Positions 5,729 through 61,658 are shown, counted from the first letter of the stretch. The stretch is 64,000 nucleotides of DNA from Octopus vulgaris (GCA_951406725.2 OX597815.1:182466001-182530000), one strand, 5' to 3'. A program made the numbers and translations. Notes: a model not told the origin generated them from the sequence alone.

Positions 5729-5742
5729 TTTATATATATATA

Positions 5743-6167
5743 TAGGCGCAGGAGTGGCTGTGTGGTAAGTAGCTTGCTAACCAACCACATGGTTCCGGGT
5801 TCAGTCCCACTGCGTGGCATCTTGGGCAAGTGTCTTCTGCTATAGCCCCGGGCCGACCAATGCCTTGTGAGTGGATTTGGTAGACGGAAACTGAAAGAAG
5901 CCTGCCGTATATATGTGTATATATATATATATATGTGTGTGTGTTTGTGTGTCTGTGTTTGGCCCCCTAGCATTGCTTGACAACCGATGCTGGTGTGTTT
6001 ACGTCCCCGTCACTTAGCGGTTCGGCAAAAAAAAAGACCGATAGAATAAGTACTGGGCTTACAAAGAATAAGTCCCGGGGTCGATTTGCTCGACTAAAAG
6101 GCGGTGCTCCAGCATGGCCGCAGTCGAATGACTGAAACAAGTAAAAGAGTAAAAGAGTAAAAGAGTA
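5743..6167 (+). mobile_element. SINE family B (tRNA head, CORE-like cttgggcaagtg, internal microsatellite, taaaagag tail)
   Basis: ggcgcaggagtggctgtgtggtaag ... ccgggttcagtccc ... gactgaaacaagtaaaagag. Confidence 0.9.
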
Positions 6168-6176
6168 TATATATAT

Positions 6177-9490: not shown

Positions 9491-9540
9491 CAGTATGTAT
9501 ATACACATGCATCTTTAGGTATGTACATAAGTATACATAT

Positions 9541-9946
9541 ACTCTCTTTTTACTCTTTTTACTTGTTTCAGTCATTTGACTGCGGCCATGCTGGAGCACC
9601 GCCTTTAGTCGAGCAAATCGATCCCGGGACTTATTCTTTTGTAAGCCCAGTACGTATTCTATCGGTCTCTTTTGCCGAACCGCTAAGTAACGGGGACATA
9701 AACACACTAGCATCGGCTGTCAAGCAATGCTAGGGGGACAAACACAGACACACACGCACACACACACACACATACATATATACGACAGGCTTCTTTCAGT
9801 TTCCATCTACCAAATCCACTCACAAGGCATTGGTCGGCCCGGGGCTATAGCAGAAGACACTTGCCCAAGATACCACGCAGTGGGACTGAACTCGGAACCA
9901 TGAGGTTGGTTAGCAAGCTACTTACCACACAGCCACTCCTGCGCCT
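9541..9946 (-). mobile_element. SINE family B
   Basis: Near-consensus reverse-complement copy. Confidence 0.9.
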
Positions 9947-9956
9947 ATATATATAG

Positions 9957-10181
9957 TTCTTTACTGCCCAGAAGGGGCTAAACATAGAGGGGACAAACAA
10001 GGACAGACGAAGGGATTGAGTCGATTATATCGCCCTCAGTGCGAAACTGGTGCTTTATTTATCGACCCTGAAATGATTAAAGGCAAAGCTGACCTCGGCG
10101 GAATTTGAACTCAGAACGTAACGACAGACGAAATACCGCTAAGCTTTTCGCCCAGCGCGCTAACGTGTCTGCCAGCTCGCC
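9957..10181 (-). mobile_element. SINE family A monomer
   Basis: Reverse complement from ggcgagctggcaga to gtaaagaa. Confidence 0.9.
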
Positions 10182-11366
10182 ATACATATGTATATATTTG
10201 TGTTTTCATACATTCAAACATGTACATGCACATAAACATTTTTAAAATGCAGTTTGCAATTGTTCGAAAATTTCAAATCTTTCCCAACCACCCAGACACT
10301 TCATTATCACTTGCATGAAGTTTAAGCATGACCGGGTGAAGGTTAAAAAACTGCTTACCGATACAACACCAGGTATACGTATTAAAAATGGCTCATTTTA
10401 GAAAATTATTCCTTGTAAACAGCACAACCTGTTTAATCTGTTCATAAATTCAAAAAATTAAGCTAGATGTGCTGTCTTTGTAGACAACGAATGAACTGTG
10501 AACAAACTGCCCCTAGTAAAATACTTTAAATATTCTATTCCCTTCTGCTTCTTTAATTGTCGAAGAATTGATTATAGAAGTTCACTAAATATTAAGTATT
10601 ACCACTGCTTGCTAATGTGCCGCGAAGTGATGACAACTTTTTTTTTATCTCGAATAGTGATGCCAACATGCGACAACTGCTGCATAACTGTCTCTTCTTG
10701 ATTAAATGTCGTACATTCTGTACAGTCACGTGTGCTTTCAACTCAACAATATAAAATCAGCATTTATCGCATGATTGTCATGCGTGTTATATTAAATTGC
10801 TGAGCTTTATTAACTTGCTTTGGTTCATATATCTTCATTGACTAACAAGCCAAATGTGGTCACCGGTTGAGCATTTGAAAGGATTAGAGATTTATGAAGT
10901 TTCTTTCATTCTGGTTCACTATTAATTTGCATGTTGAATGTGAGACTCAACAAAATGCTTGGATGTCTTAAGTGGTTAGATCTCGATTACATCCAACCAG
11001 AGGAACTTCCCACCTGCAGACTGCCTTTCGTTAGATCCCTTTCAAATGTCCCTTGCAGTCTAAACTCATCAGACTGTAAGGTCTTTTTCCATAACATATT
11101 GGAATCTTTGGAATTACCTCAAAATTGCTTCCTCTTGTAAACGAGTTATACAGCCTCCCATCTTAAGCTCTGTTACGTAGCTTGTTAGTCATCATATATA
11201 TATATATATATTTTATATATATATATATATATATTAATAAAAAGAATTCCAACCTTGTCTGATTTTCACGTTTTATTTACAATCTTATAATGATATATTA
11301 TAAGATAATATATTATAATTGAATAAAATAAAATGAAATAGTAGAATGTTAAATATTCATTCTGAT

Positions 11367-11411
11367 TGAACTAGTACTTTCATGCATTGAATTCTGCAAT
11401 CTTCGGGTTCA
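11367..11411 (-). ncRNA. PLE pLTR minimal hammerhead (CCGAAGA variant), left arm
   Basis: Mirror of 17058-17102. Confidence 0.65.
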
Positions 11412-11905
11412 TGTAGTAGTGTTGACAGTCATGCTTCACAATTTTTGACTGTAGCAAGATGAGTGATTCTGTGCTATAAATACAGCTGGGTAGGCTCCAG
11501 AGTGCTAGGTTTTGCAAACTGTATTCTGACCAATCAGTGTGTAGTATCACTCAATTACTTAAGCTGATTGGTTGGTTGAGCTGATTGGTTTAGGCATCAC
11601 GCTTTGTTGGACAGGTCAAGAGTCCTGTATCTTGACCCTGGCCGAAGCAGCAATTGTTGGGTTATTTTTAGAAATGTTGTAAATATCCTTTGTCAGAGAT
11701 TTTTATATTTTTATATTTCAATTGTCATCATCATCATTGTCAGCACCTTAATTATTGTTGCTAGTGGTGATGGTGGTGGCAATAGAACTTTTAACCCTAA
11801 ATAAGATAATTTTCCTGCTATCTTCGTCTTGATCACCTTTAGTATTGTTGTTGTTGTTAGTGGTCATGGTCGTAGCAGTGGAAGTAATACCTCTAAGTAT
11901 TATTA

Positions 11906-14233
11906 TTATTGCTTATTTAGCTTGGGTTCGAATTTATCAATAAAATTCTTTTCTCTGATTTTCCTCTCGATTTCACTTGGGCTGTGTAATTTGTAGAATG
12001 GAAATATTATATATATTTTCCGACCACATGTTGCTAGGTGGTTACTCAAAGGTATCTGACGGACCTCTGGGTCTCTAATCTGTTGCCGGTGTACACGTGA
12101 GCGTTCTAATAGTGCGTTTCCCGTCTGACCTACATATATTTCTTCACAATTTGGGCATTTGATGCAGTAAATTAAATTTCTGCTTTTGCAGTTCATATTC
12201 GCGTTTGTGAATATTTTCCCGGTTTTTGTGTTTATATATTGACCGGTATGTATGAATTGGCATGTGCCACATCGGCTATCATTGCATTTAGATACCGTGA
12301 ATGTTTGGTCTTTGTTGCTGAGGTCAAATTTTGCCTTTGTTAGTAATGTTTTCAAGTTTTTAGGCTGTCTTTTACTAAGCACCATAGCTCGATCCTTGAT
12401 TATGTCTTTTAATTCATTACTTTGGGCAATGATTGGTAGGTTTGCTTTGGCAATGTTGAAGATATTCTGGTGACATGGGTTGTGTGTCACTATGAATGGT
12501 ATGACTTGTTCTTGTTTTCCTCTTCCTTGGGTTGTCCTAAGTTGTTGTATAGGTATTTTTATAGCCCGCTGTATGCCATTTTCTATAAGTAGAGATGGGT
12601 ATTTTTGTTTGAGCAAAAATTCTCTTAGTTCTATTAGGCGTTTGTTCCTGATATTTGCATCTTCTACAATAGTACAAATTCTTCTGGCTAGGCAGTATGG
12701 GATGTTACGTTTTGTATGTGGTGGATGGCACGACTTAAAATTTAGGTATTGATGTGTGTCTGTGTGTTTATAGTATATATCTGTGGTGATGGTGGTGTCT
12801 TTTTTAATTACCATTATATCCAGGAATGGTAATTTGGTACTACTCATCTCCTTTGTAAATTTGAGAGATGGGTGTAGGTTGTTCAGGAGGATATTGAACT
12901 CTTCCAGAGTATTTAGAGATTCTGTCCAGATTATGAAACAGTCGTCTAGGTATCTCTTCCATGCCTTTTCAATATACTTTCTAAATCCAGTGCCATAGTT
13001 TACCTCCACCTCTTGGTAGAGTTGTTCTTCTAAGTATCCCATTACAGAGTTGGCGTAAACGGGAGCAAACCTCGTTCCCATCGCCGTGCCTCTAATTTGG
13101 ATGTAATTCTTTCCATTGAAGAAGAATGTGTTATTTTCTAGAATAAGTTTGACTGTGTCTAATATAAATGGCACTGTGAATCTGCTGGGAATCACTTCTC
13201 TATGTTTTTCTAACCAGTATTTAATCGCCTTTATTCCTAAATCGTGTGGAATATTGGTGTAGAGGCTTACCACATCAAAACTTAGTAAAACTGAATTTGT
13301 TTCTGTTGTTTTGGGAAGATGGGACAGGAAGTCGATGTCATCCCTGATGAAACTTGGTATGTAAGTACATAGTGGTTTCAAAACAATGTCAATAAAATTG
13401 CTTAGACGGTGTGTAGGGCATGCTGGACCAGCTATAATAGGTCTAAGTTTTAGGTCTTTTGGATGTAATAATTTTATGTACTCACTTTCTTGTTCTTTTA
13501 CTGCCTGTTGAATGTTTTTTGATTTGTGTATTTTTGGTAAGCCGTAGAAGTTGCTGGGTTTTGGTTCAAAATTGGTGATGTAGTCTTTTTCATTATCCGT
13601 AAGTGAGTTGTGGTGTGTTGAAATCAGGTTGTTGATCTTTTTCATGATGTGGTGGTCTATATTTGCGGGTATTTCACAATAGAAGGTTGTATCCTTCAGT
13701 TGGTCTTCAACCAAATCCTTATAGTATTCGGTATCCATAATAACAATTGCACCACCTTTATCTGCTTGTTTAATTATTATTGTTTGATCGTTTTGTATAC
13801 GTTTACATGCAGACATCTCTGATTTGCTAATGTTTGGCCTAACATTGGTATTGCGTCTAAGGGGAAATTTAGACAGGATATCAATGTATTGGTCAAGGTA
13901 GTTATTTCTTCCTTTTGGTGGGGTGAAATTTGATTTATTCCTTACTAGGGATTCATCAATCTCATTACTTTTGTTAGCGAAGAATTCTACAAGTCGTAAT
14001 TTTCGACAGAATTTTTGGATATCCTCCTTTAATTCTTGGTGGTTGGCTGTTGGTGTAGGTGTGAATTTCAGTCCTTTTGACAGAAGTTGGATTTCATCAT
14101 CGTCAAGATCTCTTTTTGATAAATTAATTATTTTAGGATCTATACGTTCAGTTGTTTGGGGTATGTTTCCTCTTGGATTTTTTCTTTCTCCGGTGTTTGT
14201 TGTCCTGACGTAAAAAAATGGATTTTTTTCTGG
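11906..14233 (-). CDS. PLE reverse transcriptase + GIY-YIG endonuclease; open frame of 775 codons, first ATG at 13816
   Basis: IINLS..LLSKGLKF N-terminal motif upstream of the ATG; ADKGG, FYGLPKIHK, SFDVVSLYTNIP, GTAMG, RYLDD, LPFLD; Cys linker KCNDSRCGTC; LIYCIKCPNC..YVGQTG; bounded by TAA at 14234-14236. Confidence 0.92.
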   Translation of the reverse strand, partial: PEKNPFFYVRTTNTGERKNPRGNIPQTTERIDPKIINLSKRDLDDDEIQLLSKGLKFTPTPTANHQELKEDIQKFCRKLRLVEFFANKSNEIDESLVRNKSNFTPPKGRNNYLDQYIDILSKFPLRRNTNVRPNISKSEMSACKRIQNDQTIIIKQADKGGAIVIMDTEYYKDLVEDQLKDTTFYCEIPANIDHHIMKKINNLISTHHNSLTDNEKDYITNFEPKPSNFYGLPKIHKSKNIQQAVKEQESEYIKLLHPKDLKLRPIIAGPACPTHRLSNFIDIVLKPLCTYIPSFIRDDIDFLSHLPKTTETNSVLLSFDVVSLYTNIPHDLGIKAIKYWLEKHREVIPSRFTVPFILDTVKLILENNTFFFNGKNYIQIRGTAMGTRFAPVYANSVMGYLEEQLYQEVEVNYGTGFRKYIEKAWKRYLDDCFIIWTESLNTLEEFNILLNNLHPSLKFTKEMSSTKLPFLDIMVIKKDTTITTDIYYKHTDTHQYLNFKSCHPPHTKRNIPYCLARRICTIVEDANIRNKRLIELREFLLKQKYPSLLIENGIQRAIKIPIQQLRTTQGRGKQEQVIPFIVTHNPCHQNIFNIAKANLPIIAQSNELKDIIKDRAMVLSKRQPKNLKTLLTKAKFDLSNKDQTFTVSKCNDSRCGTCQFIHTGQYINTKTGKIFTNANMNCKSRNLIYCIKCPNCEEIYVGQTGNALLERSRVHRQQIRDPEVRQIPLSNHLATCGRKIYIIFPFYKLHSPSEIERKIREKNFIDKFEPKLNKQ

Positions 14234-15009
14234 TTATGATTTATATTCCTGTTGATGTTTGCTTGATGAATTTTGCGTTTTGGTTGTGGTACTTTACTTG
14301 GTTTCGTTATGTTTTCTGTCTTGTTTTTGGTATTATGTATGCTACTTTTCAATTTCTTGTTAGCATTGTTTTTAACCACCTGGAGAAATGATCTGGGTTT
14401 ACTTCTAGATCTAGATCGGTTTTTTGTCCAGTTTCTTGTGGGTAATCTCTGTTGAGGTCTTGAAAATGATCTCCTGTTATTTCTACTGCTAATGGTCTGT
14501 TCAAAACAATATCTATTTTGTTTGTGCTTTTTGTTCATGTTGTGTGCATTAGGGTGTTTGCATACAAAATGGGAAGAGTTCTTACCGTAGTTCGTCTTCG
14601 ATTCGTGGTGAAACGGGTGTTCATGTTGCCACGTGTTCTGGTGTATGTTGCGTTGGTGAGGTTGTCCACTTTTAATGCTATTTCTCGGAGTTCTGGTGTC
14701 TTTACCGTAATTTGTAGCATATTTGTCGAGAAATAATTGTTTCCGCTGCCAAAACTTTCTTGATCTGCTTTCTTCTTTTGAGATATCTCTGATCCATAGT
14801 TCTCGCATTTTTTCTGCTATATTGCCGGTCGTTAGTTTGGATATTTCATCTCTGATTTGATCATCGATAGCTTCGTATTTGGCTTTGTAGCGGGATTGTT
14901 TAGACAGGGTTATGGAGATGTCGGTCCTGAATTTTATCAAACTAAGGTCCCATCGAAGTTTAGTTTCTTCCTCTGGTTCTCCTGCAATTTCTTTAATTAG
15001 GTACTTCCG
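14140..15009 (-). CDS. PLE upstream ORF (helical N-part, basic RS-rich C-part), 5'-truncated at the inversion junction
   Basis: Track ORF 14140-14940 stays open to the junction (RKYLIKEIAGEPEEETKLRWDLS...); overlaps the RT frame by 94 nt. Confidence 0.75.
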   Translation of the reverse strand, partial: RKYLIKEIAGEPEEETKLRWDLSLIKFRTDISITLSKQSRYKAKYEAIDDQIRDEISKLTTGNIAEKMRELWIRDISKEESRSRKFWQRKQLFLDKYATNYGKDTRTPRNSIKSGQPHQRNIHQNTWQHEHPFHHESKTNYGKNSSHFVCKHPNAHNMNKKHKQNRYCFEQTISSRNNRRSFSRPQQRLPTRNWTKNRSRSRSKPRSFLQVVKNNANKKLKSSIHNTKNKTENITKPSKVPQPKRKIHQANINRNINHNQKKIHFFTSGQQTPEKEKIQEETYPKQLNV

Positions 15010-16563
15010 AAAGACCTAAAACTTAGACCTATTATAGCTGGTCCAGCATGCCCTACACACCGTCTAAGCAATTTTATTGACATTGTTTTGAAACCACTAT
15101 GTACTTACATACCAAGTTTCATCAGGGATGACATCGACTTCCTGTCCCATCTTCCCAAAACAACAGAAACAAATTCAGTTTTACTAAGTTTTGATGTGGT
15201 AAGCCTCTACACCAATATTCCACACGATTTAGGAATAAAGGCGATTAAATACTGGTTAGAAAAACATAGAGAAGTGATTCCCAGCAGATTCACAGTGCCA
15301 TTTATATTAGACACAGTCAAACTTATTCTAGAAAATAACACATTCTTCTTCAATGGAAAGAATTACATCCAAATTAGAGGCACGGCGATGGGAACGAGGT
15401 TTGCTCCCGTTTACGCCAACTCTGTAATGGGATACTTAGAAGAACAACTCTACCAAGAGGTGGAGGTAAACTATGGCACTGGATTTAGAAAGTATATTGA
15501 AAAGGCATGGAAGAGATACCTAGACGACTGTTTCATAATCTGGACAGAATCTCTAAATACTCTGGAAGAGTTCAATATCCTCCTGAACAACCTACACCCA
15601 TCTCTCAAATTTACAAAGGAGATGAGTAGTACCAAATTACCATTCCTGGATATAATGGTAATTAAAAAAGACACCACCATCACCACAGATATATACTATA
15701 AACACACAGACACACATCAATACCTAAATTTTAAGTCGTGCCATCCACCACATACAAAACGTAACATCCCATACTGCCTAGCCAGAAGAATTTGTACTAT
15801 TGTAGAAGATGCAAATATCAGGAACAAACGCCTAATAGAACTAAGAGAATTTTTGCTCAAACAAAAATACCCATCTCTACTTATAGAAAATGGCATACAG
15901 CGGGCTATAAAAATACCTATACAACAACTTAGGACAACCCAAGGAAGAGGAAAACAAGAACAAGTCATACCATTCATAGTGACACACAACCCATGTCACC
16001 AGAATATCTTCAACATTGCCAAAGCAAACCTACCAATCATTGCCCAAAGTAATGAATTAAAAGACATAATCAAGGATCGAGCTATGGTGCTTAGTAAAAG
16101 ACAGCCTAAAAACTTGAAAACATTACTAACAAAGGCAAAATTTGACCTCAGCAACAAAGACCAAACATTCACGGTATCTAAATGCAATGATAGCCGATGT
16201 GGCACATGCCAATTCATACATACCGGTCAATATATAAACACAAAAACCGGGAAAATATTCACAAACGCGAATATGAACTGCAAAAGCAGAAATTTAATTT
16301 ACTGCATCAAATGCCCAAATTGTGAAGAAATATATGTAGGTCAGACGGGAAACGCACTATTAGAACGCTCACGTGTACACCGGCAACAGATTAGAGACCC
16401 AGAGGTCCGTCAGATACCTTTGAGTAACCACCTAGCAACATGTGGTCGGAAAATATATATAATATTTCCATTCTACAAATTACACAGCCCAAGTGAAATC
16501 GAGAGGAAAATCAGAGAAAAGAATTTTATTGATAAATTCGAACCCAAGCTAAATAAGCAATAA
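15010..16563 (+). CDS. 5'-truncated inverted copy of PLE RT/GIY-YIG ORF
   Basis: 491-aa track ORF identical to the C-terminal part of the minus-strand protein. Confidence 0.85.
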   Translation, partial: KDLKLRPIIAGPACPTHRLSNFIDIVLKPLCTYIPSFIRDDIDFLSHLPKTTETNSVLLSFDVVSLYTNIPHDLGIKAIKYWLEKHREVIPSRFTVPFILDTVKLILENNTFFFNGKNYIQIRGTAMGTRFAPVYANSVMGYLEEQLYQEVEVNYGTGFRKYIEKAWKRYLDDCFIIWTESLNTLEEFNILLNNLHPSLKFTKEMSSTKLPFLDIMVIKKDTTITTDIYYKHTDTHQYLNFKSCHPPHTKRNIPYCLARRICTIVEDANIRNKRLIELREFLLKQKYPSLLIENGIQRAIKIPIQQLRTTQGRGKQEQVIPFIVTHNPCHQNIFNIAKANLPIIAQSNELKDIIKDRAMVLSKRQPKNLKTLLTKAKFDLSNKDQTFTVSKCNDSRCGTCQFIHTGQYINTKTGKIFTNANMNCKSRNLIYCIKCPNCEEIYVGQTGNALLERSRVHRQQIRDPEVRQIPLSNHLATCGRKIYIIFPFYKLHSPSEIERKIREKNFIDKFEPKLNKQ

Positions 16564-16880
16564 TAATAATACTTAGAGGTATTACTTCCACTGCTACGAC
16601 CATGACCACTAACAACAACAACAATACTAAAGGTGATCAAGACGAAGATAGCAGGAAAATTATCTTATTTAGGGTTAAAAGTTCTATTGCCACCACCATC
16701 ACCACTAGCAACAATAATTAAGGTGCTGACAATGATGATGATGACAATTGAAATATAAAAATATAAAAATCTCTGACAAAGGATATTTACAACATTTCTA
16801 AAAATAACCCAACAATTGCTGCTTCGGCCAGGGTCAAGATACAGGACTCTTGACCTGTCCAACAAAGCGTGATGCCTAAA

Positions 16881-16994
16881 CCAATCAGCTCAACCAACCA
16901 ATCAGCTTAAGTAATTGAGTGATACTACACACTGATTGGTCAGAATACAGTTTGCAAAACCTAGCACTCTGGAGCCTACCCAGCTGTATTTATA
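16881..16994 (+). promoter_or_regulatory. Putative Pol II promoter in pLTR (three CCAAT boxes and a TATA-like box); mirrored at 11475-11588 on minus
   Basis: ccaatcagct at 16881 and 16898, reverse ctgattgg at ~16932, tatttata at 16987-16994, ~65 nt upstream of the hammerhead. Confidence 0.5.
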
Positions 16995-17057
16995 GCACAG
17001 AATCACTCATCTTGCTACAGTCAAAAATTGTGAAGCATGACTGTCAACACTACTACA

Positions 17058-17102
17058 TGAACCCGAAGATTGCAGAATTCAATGCATGAAAGTACTAGTT
17101 CA
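17058..17102 (+). ncRNA. PLE pLTR minimal hammerhead (CCGAAGA variant)
   Basis: tgaac-CCGAAGA-t-tgca(gaattcaa)tgca-t-GAAA-gtac-TA-gttca; stem I tgaac/gttca; palindromic AGTACT. Confidence 0.65.
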
Positions 17103-17279
17103 ATCAGAATGAATATTTAACATTCTACTATTTCATTTTATTTTATTCAATTATAATATATTATCTTATAATATATCATTATAAGATTGTAAATAAAACG
17201 TGAAAATCAGACAAGGTTGGAATTCTTTTTATTAATATATTCTTCTATACACAATCACACACACCCATATATATATATA

Positions 17280-36702: not shown

Positions 36703-37593
36703 TCAAAAAGTAATTCTTTCCCTCAAATATGATTCGTCTGTTTTTAGCCCTGAGATAACTGCGTAAAATTCTTCCCAAGGAAATAGCGCTAGAAAACGTT
36801 AACGCTGATAATTTTGTATTCTATTCACTATACAAATATTTCCCACAGAAACTCAATGACGTCTGATTTTATGATATTGCACGTATCTGGTTTCTAGTTA
36901 ATCAGTCGCAAATCATAATATATAAAATTTTATTATGTGTCGCATTTAATGTAAGCCCCTAAGTATAGTAAAGAAAAAAGTTATCACTGAATACCATAAT
37001 AAATATATTAAATTTTTCCTTGGGTAGTGATTTGAGAGAAATTGTGTTGTGTCACTGGTATTACTGGATATACATTTATTTTCCTGTCTCCTACGGCCAA
37101 CATTTGAATTTAAACATTAGTATGAAAGGAAGGTTAACAGATGGTTTGGTGCTTGCTTCGGTATTAGTATATTCTACTACTTTATAAAGCGATGGTTCTC
37201 TTCAATATATTTAACTATGGATATAACGAAAATTATATCTTAGATATTAGATTCACCATGGAAAGTTTGTCTTATTTACGAATATACTACTAAGGATAAC
37301 AGATTGAGCAATCTAAGTTGTATTTATCTTGTTCGGAATAAATACTACTTTGTGTAGCAATTTAGTAATGGGATTTAAAGTGATAAAAATGACGAGGATA
37401 ATAGGGTTGATGATATCTAGATGTGTGATATTTCTCGAATATATGAATAGGAAAAGAATAGAGTAACATGTTAACTTAGAAGCTTGAAGTATTCCCCGTG
37501 CTCAATGATGAAAAGAAAATATATGACTCCCATAATATTGTTTCCCTTACCATACACATATTTCTAGTCAGTTTTTAATATTTTCTGTATATA

Positions 37594-37794
37594 TAGCCGC
37601 AGGAGTGGCTGTGTGGTAAGTAGCTTGCTTACCAATCACCAATCTGAGTTCAGTCCCACTGCGTGGCACCTTGGGGAAAGTGTCTTCTACTATAGCATCG
37701 GACCGACCAAAGCCTTGTGAGTGTATTTGGTAGACAGAAACTGAAAGAAGCCCATCGTATATATATATATATATATATATACATATATATATAC

Positions 37795-37849
<55 letters not shown>

Positions 37850-38050
37850 TCCCCCCAACATCGCTTGACAACCGATGCTGGTGTGTTTACGTCCCCGTCA
37901 CTTAGCGGTTCGGCAAGAGAGACCGATAGAATAAGTACTGGGCTTACAAAGAATAAGTCCTGGGGTCGATTTGCTCGACTAAAGGCGGTGCTCCAGCCTG
38001 GCCGCAGTCAAATGACTGAAACAAATAAAAAAATAAAAGAATAAAAGAAT
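37594..38050 (+). mobile_element. SINE family B
   Basis: Full-length near-consensus. Confidence 0.9.
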
Positions 38051-39044
38051 ATTATCTCTAAACGATTAGAATGTTTTACGAAATGTGCAAACACCTTTTA
38101 AGTCGAGAGAGAGCATTTCAAGTTATGAAAATGTATTTCGAGAACGTTAACCACGTGATTAATGTTATTGATATGCAACTTTTTCAACAGGGAAATAAGA
38201 CGTAGTCATGAATATGACACTGAACACCCGTTATCCCAATAAAAGCAGGTGTTACAAAGGCTATTATAATAACCGATTCAAATGGATATTATGCATAAAA
38301 ATCGCATTGTTAAAGGAAGTTTTTAGCATTCATGAATTCTTATATGATATTTACTGCCTCACAGGAGCATCTGTTGAAAATCGTAGATTTTTTTCCCTTA
38401 ATATCTCGACTCATCACCTCTACTGAAAATGACACGATAATAATAGCTCAAATTCTTACAAAAATAATTCATTAATGATATTTATATGTATAATAATGCT
38501 GACGAAAGTGTGGCGGTTATATTTCCCATTTTACTAAATATTTATGAGACATGTCATATGTTTTGTTTGCGAATTGATCATCGCCTTTGTATGCATTTTT
38601 GATGCAATAAGCAAGAATTGTAAATGTAAACCAGAGAATCAATAAAGCTAAATTTAACCTTGTCTCGTATTATAAAACTGATTCTTTGCCACGAATTTTT
38701 CGTGACATAGGAGACAATAAGTAATGCAAGACAGAAACAATCACTAAATGCTATATTTGTATTCGGAATATGTGGATATTAGATATAGTTGCAGGAATAG
38801 GTGTGAGAAATAAGATAGGCTTTGCAATCACATGGCTCCTAGTTTATCCCACTGCAAGACACGTTTCGCTTCTTTGATAGCAGCGGGCCGACCAATAACC
38901 TGCGAACATTAGTGAGTAGTTCGCAAGTCTGAGAATCTATTGACGGGTGTGCAGACATGTCTATACCGACAAACATACATACATACAAACATACATGCAT
39001 ACAACCACACATACATACTTATACAAATATATATGATATATGCA

Positions 39045-48209: not shown

Positions 48210-48857
48210 TTTTCCTTCTACTTGTTTCAGTTATTAGATTGCAGCAGCCATACAGGGGGGTGGGTGGCTGCCTCGAAGAATTTTTAGTCAAATGAATTCA
48301 CCCAGGTCCTTATTTATTATTTTTGTAAGCCTGGTATTTATTCTATCGGTGTCTTTTGCCGAACTGCTAAGTGATAGGGATGTAAACACTCCAACATCGG
48401 TTGTCGAGTGATGCTAGGGGGACAAACACTGACACACAAACATATACACATATACTCTTTTACTCTTTTACTTGTTTCAGTCATCTGACTGCGGCCATGC
48501 TGGAGCACCGCCTTTAGTCGAGCAAATTGACCCCGGTACTTATTCTTTGTAAGCCCAGTACTTATTCTATCGGTCTCTTTTGCCAAACCGCTAAGTGACG
48601 AGGACGTAAACACACCAGCATCGGTTGTCAAGCAATGCTAGGGGGACAAACACAGACACACAAACATACACACACATATATATACATATATACGACGGGC
48701 TTCTCTCAGTTTCCGTCTACCAAATCCACTCACAAGGCATTGGTCGGCCCGAGGCTATAGCAGAAGACACTTGCCCAAGACGCCACGCAGTGGGACTGAA
48801 CCCGGAACCATGTGGTTGGTTAGCAAGCTACTTACCACACAGCCACTCCTGCGCCTA
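48210..48857 (-). mobile_element. SINE family B (old 3' half plus young full copy 48453-48857)
   Basis: Reverse-complement consensus matches. Confidence 0.88.
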
Positions 48858-48995
48858 TATATATAAGTTTTTCTATTGCGTTTTTTAAAAATTTATTTGT
48901 ATTTATATCTTAACAACAAACTACGACAAAATAAATTAACTATACATCCACAATTCTCCATCCTTATTAATTTTACTTACATATATATAAACGAC

Positions 48996-58331: not shown

Positions 58332-58882
58332 TCTTCTCTACACTAGGCACAAAGCCCGAAATTTTGGAGGAGGGGGAGGCCAGTCGATTAGATCGATCCC
58401 AGTACGCAACTGGTACTTAAGATAACGATCCATGAAAGGATGAAAGGCAAAGTCGACCTCGGCGGAATTTGAACTCAGAACATAAAGACAGACGAAATAC
58501 CTATTTCTTTACTACCCACAAGGGGCTAAACATACAGTGGACAAACAAGGACAGACAAAGGGATTAAGCCGATTACATCGAACGCAGTTCGTAACTGGTA
58601 CTTAATTTATCGACCCCGAAAGGAGGAAAGGCAAAGTTGACCTCGGCGGAATTTGAACTCAGAACGTAACTGCAGACGAAATACCTATTTCTTTACTACC
58701 CACAAGGGGCTCAACACAAAGGAGACAAACAAGGACAGACAGACGGATTAAGTCGATTATATCGACCCCGAAAGAATGAAAGGCACAATCGACCTCGGCG
58801 GATTTGAAATCAGAATGTAGCGGCAGACGAAATACCACTAAGCATTTCTCCCGGCGTGTTAACGTTTCATCGAGCTCGCTGC
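58332..58882 (-). mobile_element. SINE family A trimer
   Basis: Junctions gacgaaatac|ctatttctttactaccc at ~58500 and ~58684. Confidence 0.9.
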
Positions 58883-60831: not shown

Positions 60832-60880
60832 TGTGCACATACGTACATATACATATGTAAATATATATACAGATATGTTA

Positions 60881-60926
<46 letters not shown>

Positions 60927-60989
60927 CTTATATACATACACACTCATATATACATATATAAATATATATACATACATATATATATATAT

Positions 60990-61020
<31 letters not shown>

Positions 61021-61235
61021 CATGTATATATATATATATATACATACATATATATATATTTATATACATACATATGTATATATATATACATGGATATATA
61101 TATATATATACATACATACATATATATATACATACATACATATATATATATATACATACATACATATATATATACATACATACATATATATATACATACA
61201 TACATATATATATATATACATACATACATATATAT

Positions 61236-61272
<37 letters not shown>

Positions 61273-61285
61273 CATACATATATAT

Positions 61286-61328
<43 letters not shown>

Positions 61329-61600
61329 TATATACATATATAAATATATACATACATACATATATATATATACATACATATATATATATATACATACATA
61401 CATATATATATATACATACATATATATATACATACATACATATATATATATACATACATACATACATATATATATATATATACATATATATACATACATA
61501 TATATATATATATACATACATACATACATATATATATATACATACATATATATATACATACATACATACATATATATATACATACATACATACATGCATA

Positions 61601-61658
<58 letters not shown>

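Follow-up and report, generated by a model that had tools for sequence, protein, structure and literature searches.

We analyzed a 64,000-nucleotide stretch of the Octopus vulgaris genome (GCA_951406725.2 OX597815.1:182466001-182530000; hereafter the window) that carries a 6-kb palindromic insertion of a Penelope-like element (PLE). The locus consists of two 5'-truncated copies of the element, placed head to head inside an (AT)n microsatellite, as an initial annotation of the sequence had proposed and as self-BLAST, reading frames and protein domains bore out. By analogy with the behavior of related elements, we consider it probable (roughly 60%) that both ends of one DNA break each primed reverse transcription and that the two cDNAs were then joined. 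The parts of the insertion are as follows.

11194 to 11234, no strand: left (AT)n target microsatellite, of which 11229-11234 can be assigned to the element or to the target

11229 to 15010, minus strand: long 5'-truncated copy, 3.78 kb, tail-less, with its 3' end toward the left (self-match, frames); the family sequence matches up to 15010 and then diverges (a loose end in sequencing run X2)

11229 to 13459, minus strand: left arm, 2231 bp, the same as the right arm (position-wise comparison)

13460 to 15009, minus strand: spacer, 1550 bp, belonging to the long copy only (self-match, arm comparison)

14995 to 15010, no strand: inversion junction, imperfectly microhomologous to 13459-13473 and located in the loop of a family hairpin of 6-7 bp (self-match, microhomology scores, continuation in X2)

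15010 to 17240, plus strand: short 5'-truncated copy (right arm), beginning at codon 259 of open reading frame 2 (ORF2; frames, arm comparison)

17241 to 17266, plus strand: one-sided, AC-rich extension of 26 nt, probably a PLE tail (arm comparison, likeness to PMC8557442 and PMC11167929)

17267 to 17322, no strand: right (AT)n target microsatellite, with (TAT)n after it up to 17489 (repeat scan)

The only long inverted self-match in the window pairs 11229-13473 with 17240-14995. Alignment of the two arms position by position, a check proposed at the outset, found no mismatch over 2231 bp (11229-13459 versus 15010-17240), and the first mismatches lie at 11228 and 13460. Minus-strand frames run on from the left arm into the spacer, which continues that copy alone, and the 26 extra nucleotides stand beside the right arm only. 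(AT)n adjoins the insertion on both sides, as expected of a microsatellite target, and a check for a target-site duplication placed both insertion ends inside it, with no empty allele seen among reads and contigs compared over 10300-15030, of which 11186-11247 was left out as repeat. Each of these features had been pointed out in the initial annotation and stood up to analysis. Its mention of intact ORFs, on the other hand, held only in part: the frame for reverse transcriptase and endonuclease (RT-EN) is complete in the long copy, at 775 codons, but ORF1 of that copy is cut at its 5' side and the short copy starts inside the RT-EN frame. Both copies are less than full length, and neither is therefore able to act as a source copy.

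An inverted 5'-truncated copy with a one-sided tail in a (TA)n target is an architecture already known for PLEs. Inverted 5'-truncated copies and one-sided tails of 30-40 bp are frequent according to PMC8557442 (Craig et al. 2021), so the structure is not unusual, and the curation guide PMC8969392 agrees on PLE insertion architecture. The locus is a clean, long-armed example of this known structure in a young family. With the canonical endonuclease-containing PLE unit (PMC8557442; Arkhipova et al. 2013, PMC3846280) it shares the head-to-head inverted 5'-truncated copy, the extension at one end, the AT-rich simple-repeat target, a hammerhead motif in the end repeat and a palindrome at the junction. 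In contrast, the inverted arm in octopus is 2.2 kb long and reaches into RT, whereas the inverted pseudo-long terminal repeats (pLTRs) in the rotifer examples measure about 200 bp. No upstream tandem pLTR is seen at the octopus locus, where both copies are 5'-truncated, and the tail is 26 nt. What is new here are the statistics of the junction microhomology, the truncation in a hairpin loop, the copy estimate and a heptamer between ORF1 and RT.

PMC8557442 presents the formation of tandem and inverted PLE structures as an open question, and our literature search found no paper joining Penelope, inversion, both-strand priming, microhomology and octopus. In the mechanism that we favor, the nuclease would cut (AT)n on both strands, and each of the cut ends would prime reverse transcription close to the 3' terminus of the element's RNA. 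The right end would begin at an outer initiation site, hence the copied tail, and the left end about 26 nt inward, at an AUAUAU in the RNA that might pair with the target. The left cDNA would extend for 3.8 kb and stop in the loop of the small hairpin; its 3' end would then pair imperfectly with the other cDNA at the equivalent of 13459-13473, and each strand would be completed on the other. Starting at the right-hand side, the short copy offers no template for the 1550 bp beyond it. Starting at the left-hand side, folding the long cDNA back on itself could produce the right arm but no tail. An origin of the 26 nt in the element would require two RNA-templated starts, and two-end priming is inferred on that condition.

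The PLE protein of the green anole, from the Poseidon element PAc, cuts as well as extends both strands, and its tail is defined by two start sites within a stem-loop rich in AC; the spacing of these sites fits the tail (Frangieh et al. 2024, PMC11167929). The suggestion in the initial annotation that both 3'-OH ends were primers fits this in vitro behavior of a related PLE, but for the octopus element it is carried over by analogy. PAc also has an AT-rich target. It differs from the octopus element in having a single ORF, in lacking the Cys linker described below and in starting at a site that is non-homologous to the target, whereas the octopus left end has about 6 AT letters in common with its target; the text covered from that paper includes no reconstitution of the inverted product.

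Twin priming and bridges of L1 likewise involve two primed cDNAs joined by microcomplementarity (bioRxiv 10.1101/2024.08.27.596794). Twin priming does not duplicate the 3' end, because the second primer anneals internally, whereas both octopus copies carry the full 3' end; the structure is thus unlike L1 twin priming, as had been stated from the start. In a bridge reported in the same preprint, two 5'-truncated L1s meet at their 5' breakpoints and both retain a 3' end of their own, but this bridge arises from two separate insertions flanking a rearrangement.

At the junction, the long copy ends in sequence similar to that immediately upstream of the short-copy start, and the imperfect microhomology is present as originally written down. 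Its anchored, gapped score was equaled or exceeded at 3 of 3762 element positions, a count that includes the junction itself. An ungapped match of 7/9 was found at 4 of 3773 positions and a duplex energy as good as that of the real junction at 47 of 3764. Past 15010, the family continuation in X2 agrees in frame with the PILPRKYLIKE stretch of the related protein P0001 and is therefore true upstream family sequence. Its first seven letters are the reverse complement of 15002-15008, which places the end of the long copy in the loop of a hairpin of 6-7 bp. Being in or beside the loop of a perfect hairpin of equal strength applies to 21 of 3782 element positions; this coincidence concerns one junction and was spotted after the fact. 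The same head-to-head join was present in 7 of 97 related loci, all of them distant relatives, in a count that excludes five loci with other inverted self-matches (L011, L033, L044, L045, and L091).

To the right of the short copy, the 26-nt segment stands apart from other A/C/T segments between (AT) runs in the window: four of the five are (ATAC)n satellite and this one alone is non-periodic. An exact 21-mer from the end repeat had no match in the genome contigs searched.

Sequence reads and contigs were compared with the window over 10300-15030 for 4 of 24 listed runs; the raw-read runs X20 and X21 contributed 1 and 67 reads and were uninformative. In X2, single element contigs had depths of 3425 and 3790, as against 13.2-16.5 for flank contigs, which suggests a family of about 200-300 near-identical copies as a rough contig-depth reading rather than a formal copy number. 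In X1, 2509 of 4950 contigs were at least 99% alike. Both runs agree with the young, high-copy family that had been proposed. The same data also contain a 71-bp skip near 11820-11892 at a depth of 734-848 in X1 and X2, representing a subfamily with a shorter 3' region, and many single-locus internal deletions of the element.

Several observations weigh against priming from both ends of one break. The both-strand biochemistry is that of a Poseidon element, not of Neptune, the clade that the octopus element resembles. The tail measures 26 nt versus the published 30-40, its region folds no better than shuffled sequences (z +1.30), and it was not seen in other family copies in a read comparison that left out 11186-11247 as repeat. 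The seven related junctions show, by eye, little microhomology beyond the aligned arm end. The inversion junction occurs in no contig among the joints listed (15 of 41), and X1 and X2 each have a single record crossing an end of the stretch, which is explained by the left flank. Finally, the spacer letters at 14101 and 14911 depart from nearly all of the family depth while the arms differ at none. One or two independent changes per 1550 bp, arising at insertion or later, would predict 2.9-5.8 differences between the arms, and the probability of finding none would be 0.056-0.003. Either the source copy already had these two letters, or one arm was copied from the other or the two were homogenised. 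The initial annotation had taken identical arms as a sign of very recent insertion; the arms are identical and the family is young, but these two letters weaken the argument.

One possibility for arms copied from each other is a single priming event followed by fold-back. The long cDNA would stop at the hairpin, pair with itself at 13459-13473 and copy its own 3' 2.2 kb, and the 26 nt would be host target sequence. The junction microhomology equally allows such a fold-back within one cDNA, which also counts against our reading. Perfectly identical arms would be expected, as observed, and the odd spacer letters beside difference-free arms would be accommodated. Self-priming of Penelope at palindromic junctions has been proposed (PMC3846280), and the present junction lies in a palindrome. 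However, the inverted copy begins 1550 bp away from that palindrome. Copying back should moreover have continued into the left (AT)n, and only about 6 letters are shared before the 26-nt segment, which is one-sided, AC-rich and distinct from the rest of the microsatellite interruptions in the window, as a PLE tail would be. We regard fold-back as possible but unlikely.

Another possibility is that the insertion is real but older and that its arms were homogenised later, through gene conversion involving the two inverted repeats or during consensus polishing of the assembly. This would fit two off-family letters in the spacer and none in the arms. It would also fit the persistence in X1 of the window letter at 14101, found in about 69 of 98,446 depth units, or about one locus at the flank depth of 55.5. 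On the other hand, the family is young in general, judging from the X1 contigs, variants inherited from the source copy account for the same data, and X2 has no contig with the window letter at 14101. An older, homogenised insertion is improbable in our view.

The palindrome could also be an artefact of library or assembly, arising from a chimeric read that folds back on itself or from two family loci joined by mistake. The junction is supported by none of the reads or contigs listed, and several raw reads in X21 have fold-back-like loose ends at short element palindromes, for example at 14443. However, the mirror ends at the 3' end of the element and excludes the flank, and the two flanks differ. 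The left flank is matched exactly over 882 bp by a single-locus contig in X1 (the source of the depth of 55.5), the 1550-bp spacer and the one-sided extension are both present, and the layout is the same as the published natural one. We consider an artefact very unlikely, and priming from both ends of one break is the reading that we retain.

The coding and ribozyme-like features of the two copies are as follows.

11906 to 14233, minus strand: ORF2, 775 codons from stop to stop, with RT (DKG, YGLPK, YLDD), a CX4CX2C linker and a GIY-YIG nuclease with CxxC and two His (frames, Pfam, alignment)

14140 to 15010, minus strand: 3' portion of ORF1 left by the 5' truncation, overlapping ORF2 by about 91 nt in a -1 relation; similar to P0001 and to ORF1 of L082, L004, L007, L003, L008, and L001 (frames)

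14212 to 14218, minus strand: U_UUU_UUU heptamer in the ORF1 frame, a candidate -1 frameshift site (overlap scan)

11367 to 11411, minus strand: minimal type I hammerhead motif of the left copy (pattern scan)

17058 to 17102, plus strand: minimal type I hammerhead motif of the right copy, with core CCGAAGA (U4C variant), palindromic GTAC loop 3 and a predicted cut after 17097 (pattern scan, predicted fold)

ORF2 matched Pfam RVT_1 with an E value of 2.4e-6 and 27.9 bits, slightly below the cut-off of 29.6, and GIY-YIG with 24.8 bits, above the cut-off of 22.6. The RT motifs DKG, YGLPK, GTAMG, and YLDD are present and conserved. Across the 22 sequences of alignment A1, DKG is invariant, as are C624, C629, and C632 of the linker CNDSRCGTC between RT and nuclease and the CCHH residues of the nuclease (C667, C670, H689, and H706). 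A CX2-5CxxC linker marks the Neptune and Nematis clades (PMC8557442). On these linker and domain motifs the element is called Neptune-like, with Nematis as a possible alternative. With the Neptune clade it shares the C-terminal GIY-YIG domain with CCHH, the CX2-5CxxC linker, the DKG motif and the (TA)n target; what sets it apart is a separate ORF1, overlapping ORF2 where a conserved heptamer lies. For a killifish Neptune, PMC12602865 reports two ORFs that do not overlap. Named protein relatives of RT-EN include mussel and oyster sequences.

With the search pattern used, the hammerhead motif occurs once per arm and nowhere else in the window. The predicted fold contains stems I and II, but with a z of 0.24, and hammerheads of this minimal form are known from PLE end repeats (PMC4209133). 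A search of Rfam gave no hammerhead; its 4 hits were all below gathering and look like chance. Elsewhere among the related loci, L001 has a 3699-bp tandem unit with a hammerhead about 110 nt ahead of the first ATG of ORF1, L087 (521-4862) combines a 790-bp inverted arm with a tandem end repeat, and L089 and L090 hold a 3083-bp unit in a tandem array, more than 99% alike. Animal-type PLE sequences were also found in records labelled as bacterial genomes or symbionts (L081-L097; proteins P0007, P0010, P0023, P0067, P0092, and P0116). These are probably host contamination, which is also pointed out in PMC8557442.

The heptamer in the overlap between ORF1 and the RT frame is likely a programmed -1 frameshift site, judging from its conservation in related sequences. 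We scored 52 sequences, the window included, ranked by bit score. Among the best 12, T_TTT_TTN stood in the ORF1 frame within the overlap in 10, A_AAA_AAC (L008) in one and neither in one; among the remaining 40, T_TTT_TTN was present only in L004 and L007, two close relatives whose frames are broken. Carriers of T_TTT_TTN beside the window are L001, L002, L003, L004, L007, L010, L014, L020, L021, L027, and L082, and they are partly non-independent: L001, L003, and L010 belong to a single metagenome, and L020 is close to L027 at the heptamer site. The background rate of T_TTT_TTN in eight ORF1 bodies is one in 3149 codon positions. Under a pseudoknot-free model, no stable structure was predicted downstream of the heptamer in the window (-6.9 kcal/mol, z -0.38). 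The U-run of the window heptamer is able to pair with an A-run just upstream (14228).

Two other accounts of the broken frame were considered. A private frameshift error at 14140-14233 was rejected, being contradicted by X1 and X2, in which no indel is listed there, and by a contig with 18 other letters that crosses 14042-14228 gap-free. As to the U-run being part of a splice acceptor, in-frame GT-AG pairs exist and four relatives have TTTTTTAG, which is absent from L003, L014, L020, L027, and the window. Among 2708 candidates, one longer protein held ORF1, without RT, which is weak evidence, and the RT-EN relatives were at most 803 aa long in the best 120 of 679. According to the legend of Fig. 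1 in PMC8557442, ORF1 can be set off by a frameshift and a pseudoknot, with the clade unnamed. We found no paper titled on Neptune frameshifting, although Fig. 1 or the supplements of PMC8557442 may already assign a frameshift to Neptune. The RT-nuclease of the family is probably made as an ORF1-ORF2 fusion through -1 frameshifting, and because the insertion has no ORF1 start, it is predicted to have been dead on arrival.

The rest of the window contains further repeats. A 184-bp tandem unit lies at 431-981 and 58385-58769, and related units, oriented both ways, lie at about 41.0, 44.5, 57.3, and 58.5 kb. Another repeat, dispersed and about 440 bp long, is found in both orientations, with copies 77-93% alike, at 5735-6175, 9532-9967, 37588-38055, and 48442-48879, and a mixed (AT)n/(ATAC)n satellite of about 800 bp at 60847-61657. 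The palindrome itself, at 6 kb and near-perfect, is a candidate fragile site and a candidate source of double-stranded RNA.

The conserved heptamer matters for annotation and for rebuilding Neptune assays, as what looks like a frameshift between ORF1 and RT is probably a natural feature rather than damage. One locus cannot settle how PLE structures form; a family of hundreds of near-identical copies can. It could be speculated, tentatively, that this young family displays the whole unresolved PLE insertion cycle as genomic scars, namely priming from two ends at two start sites, one of them AU-aided, a cDNA stop at a hairpin and annealing by microhomology, together with a gag-pol-like -1 frameshift throughout the lineage. 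If true, Neptune-like elements would be two-ORF elements, unlike the single-ORF textbook picture.

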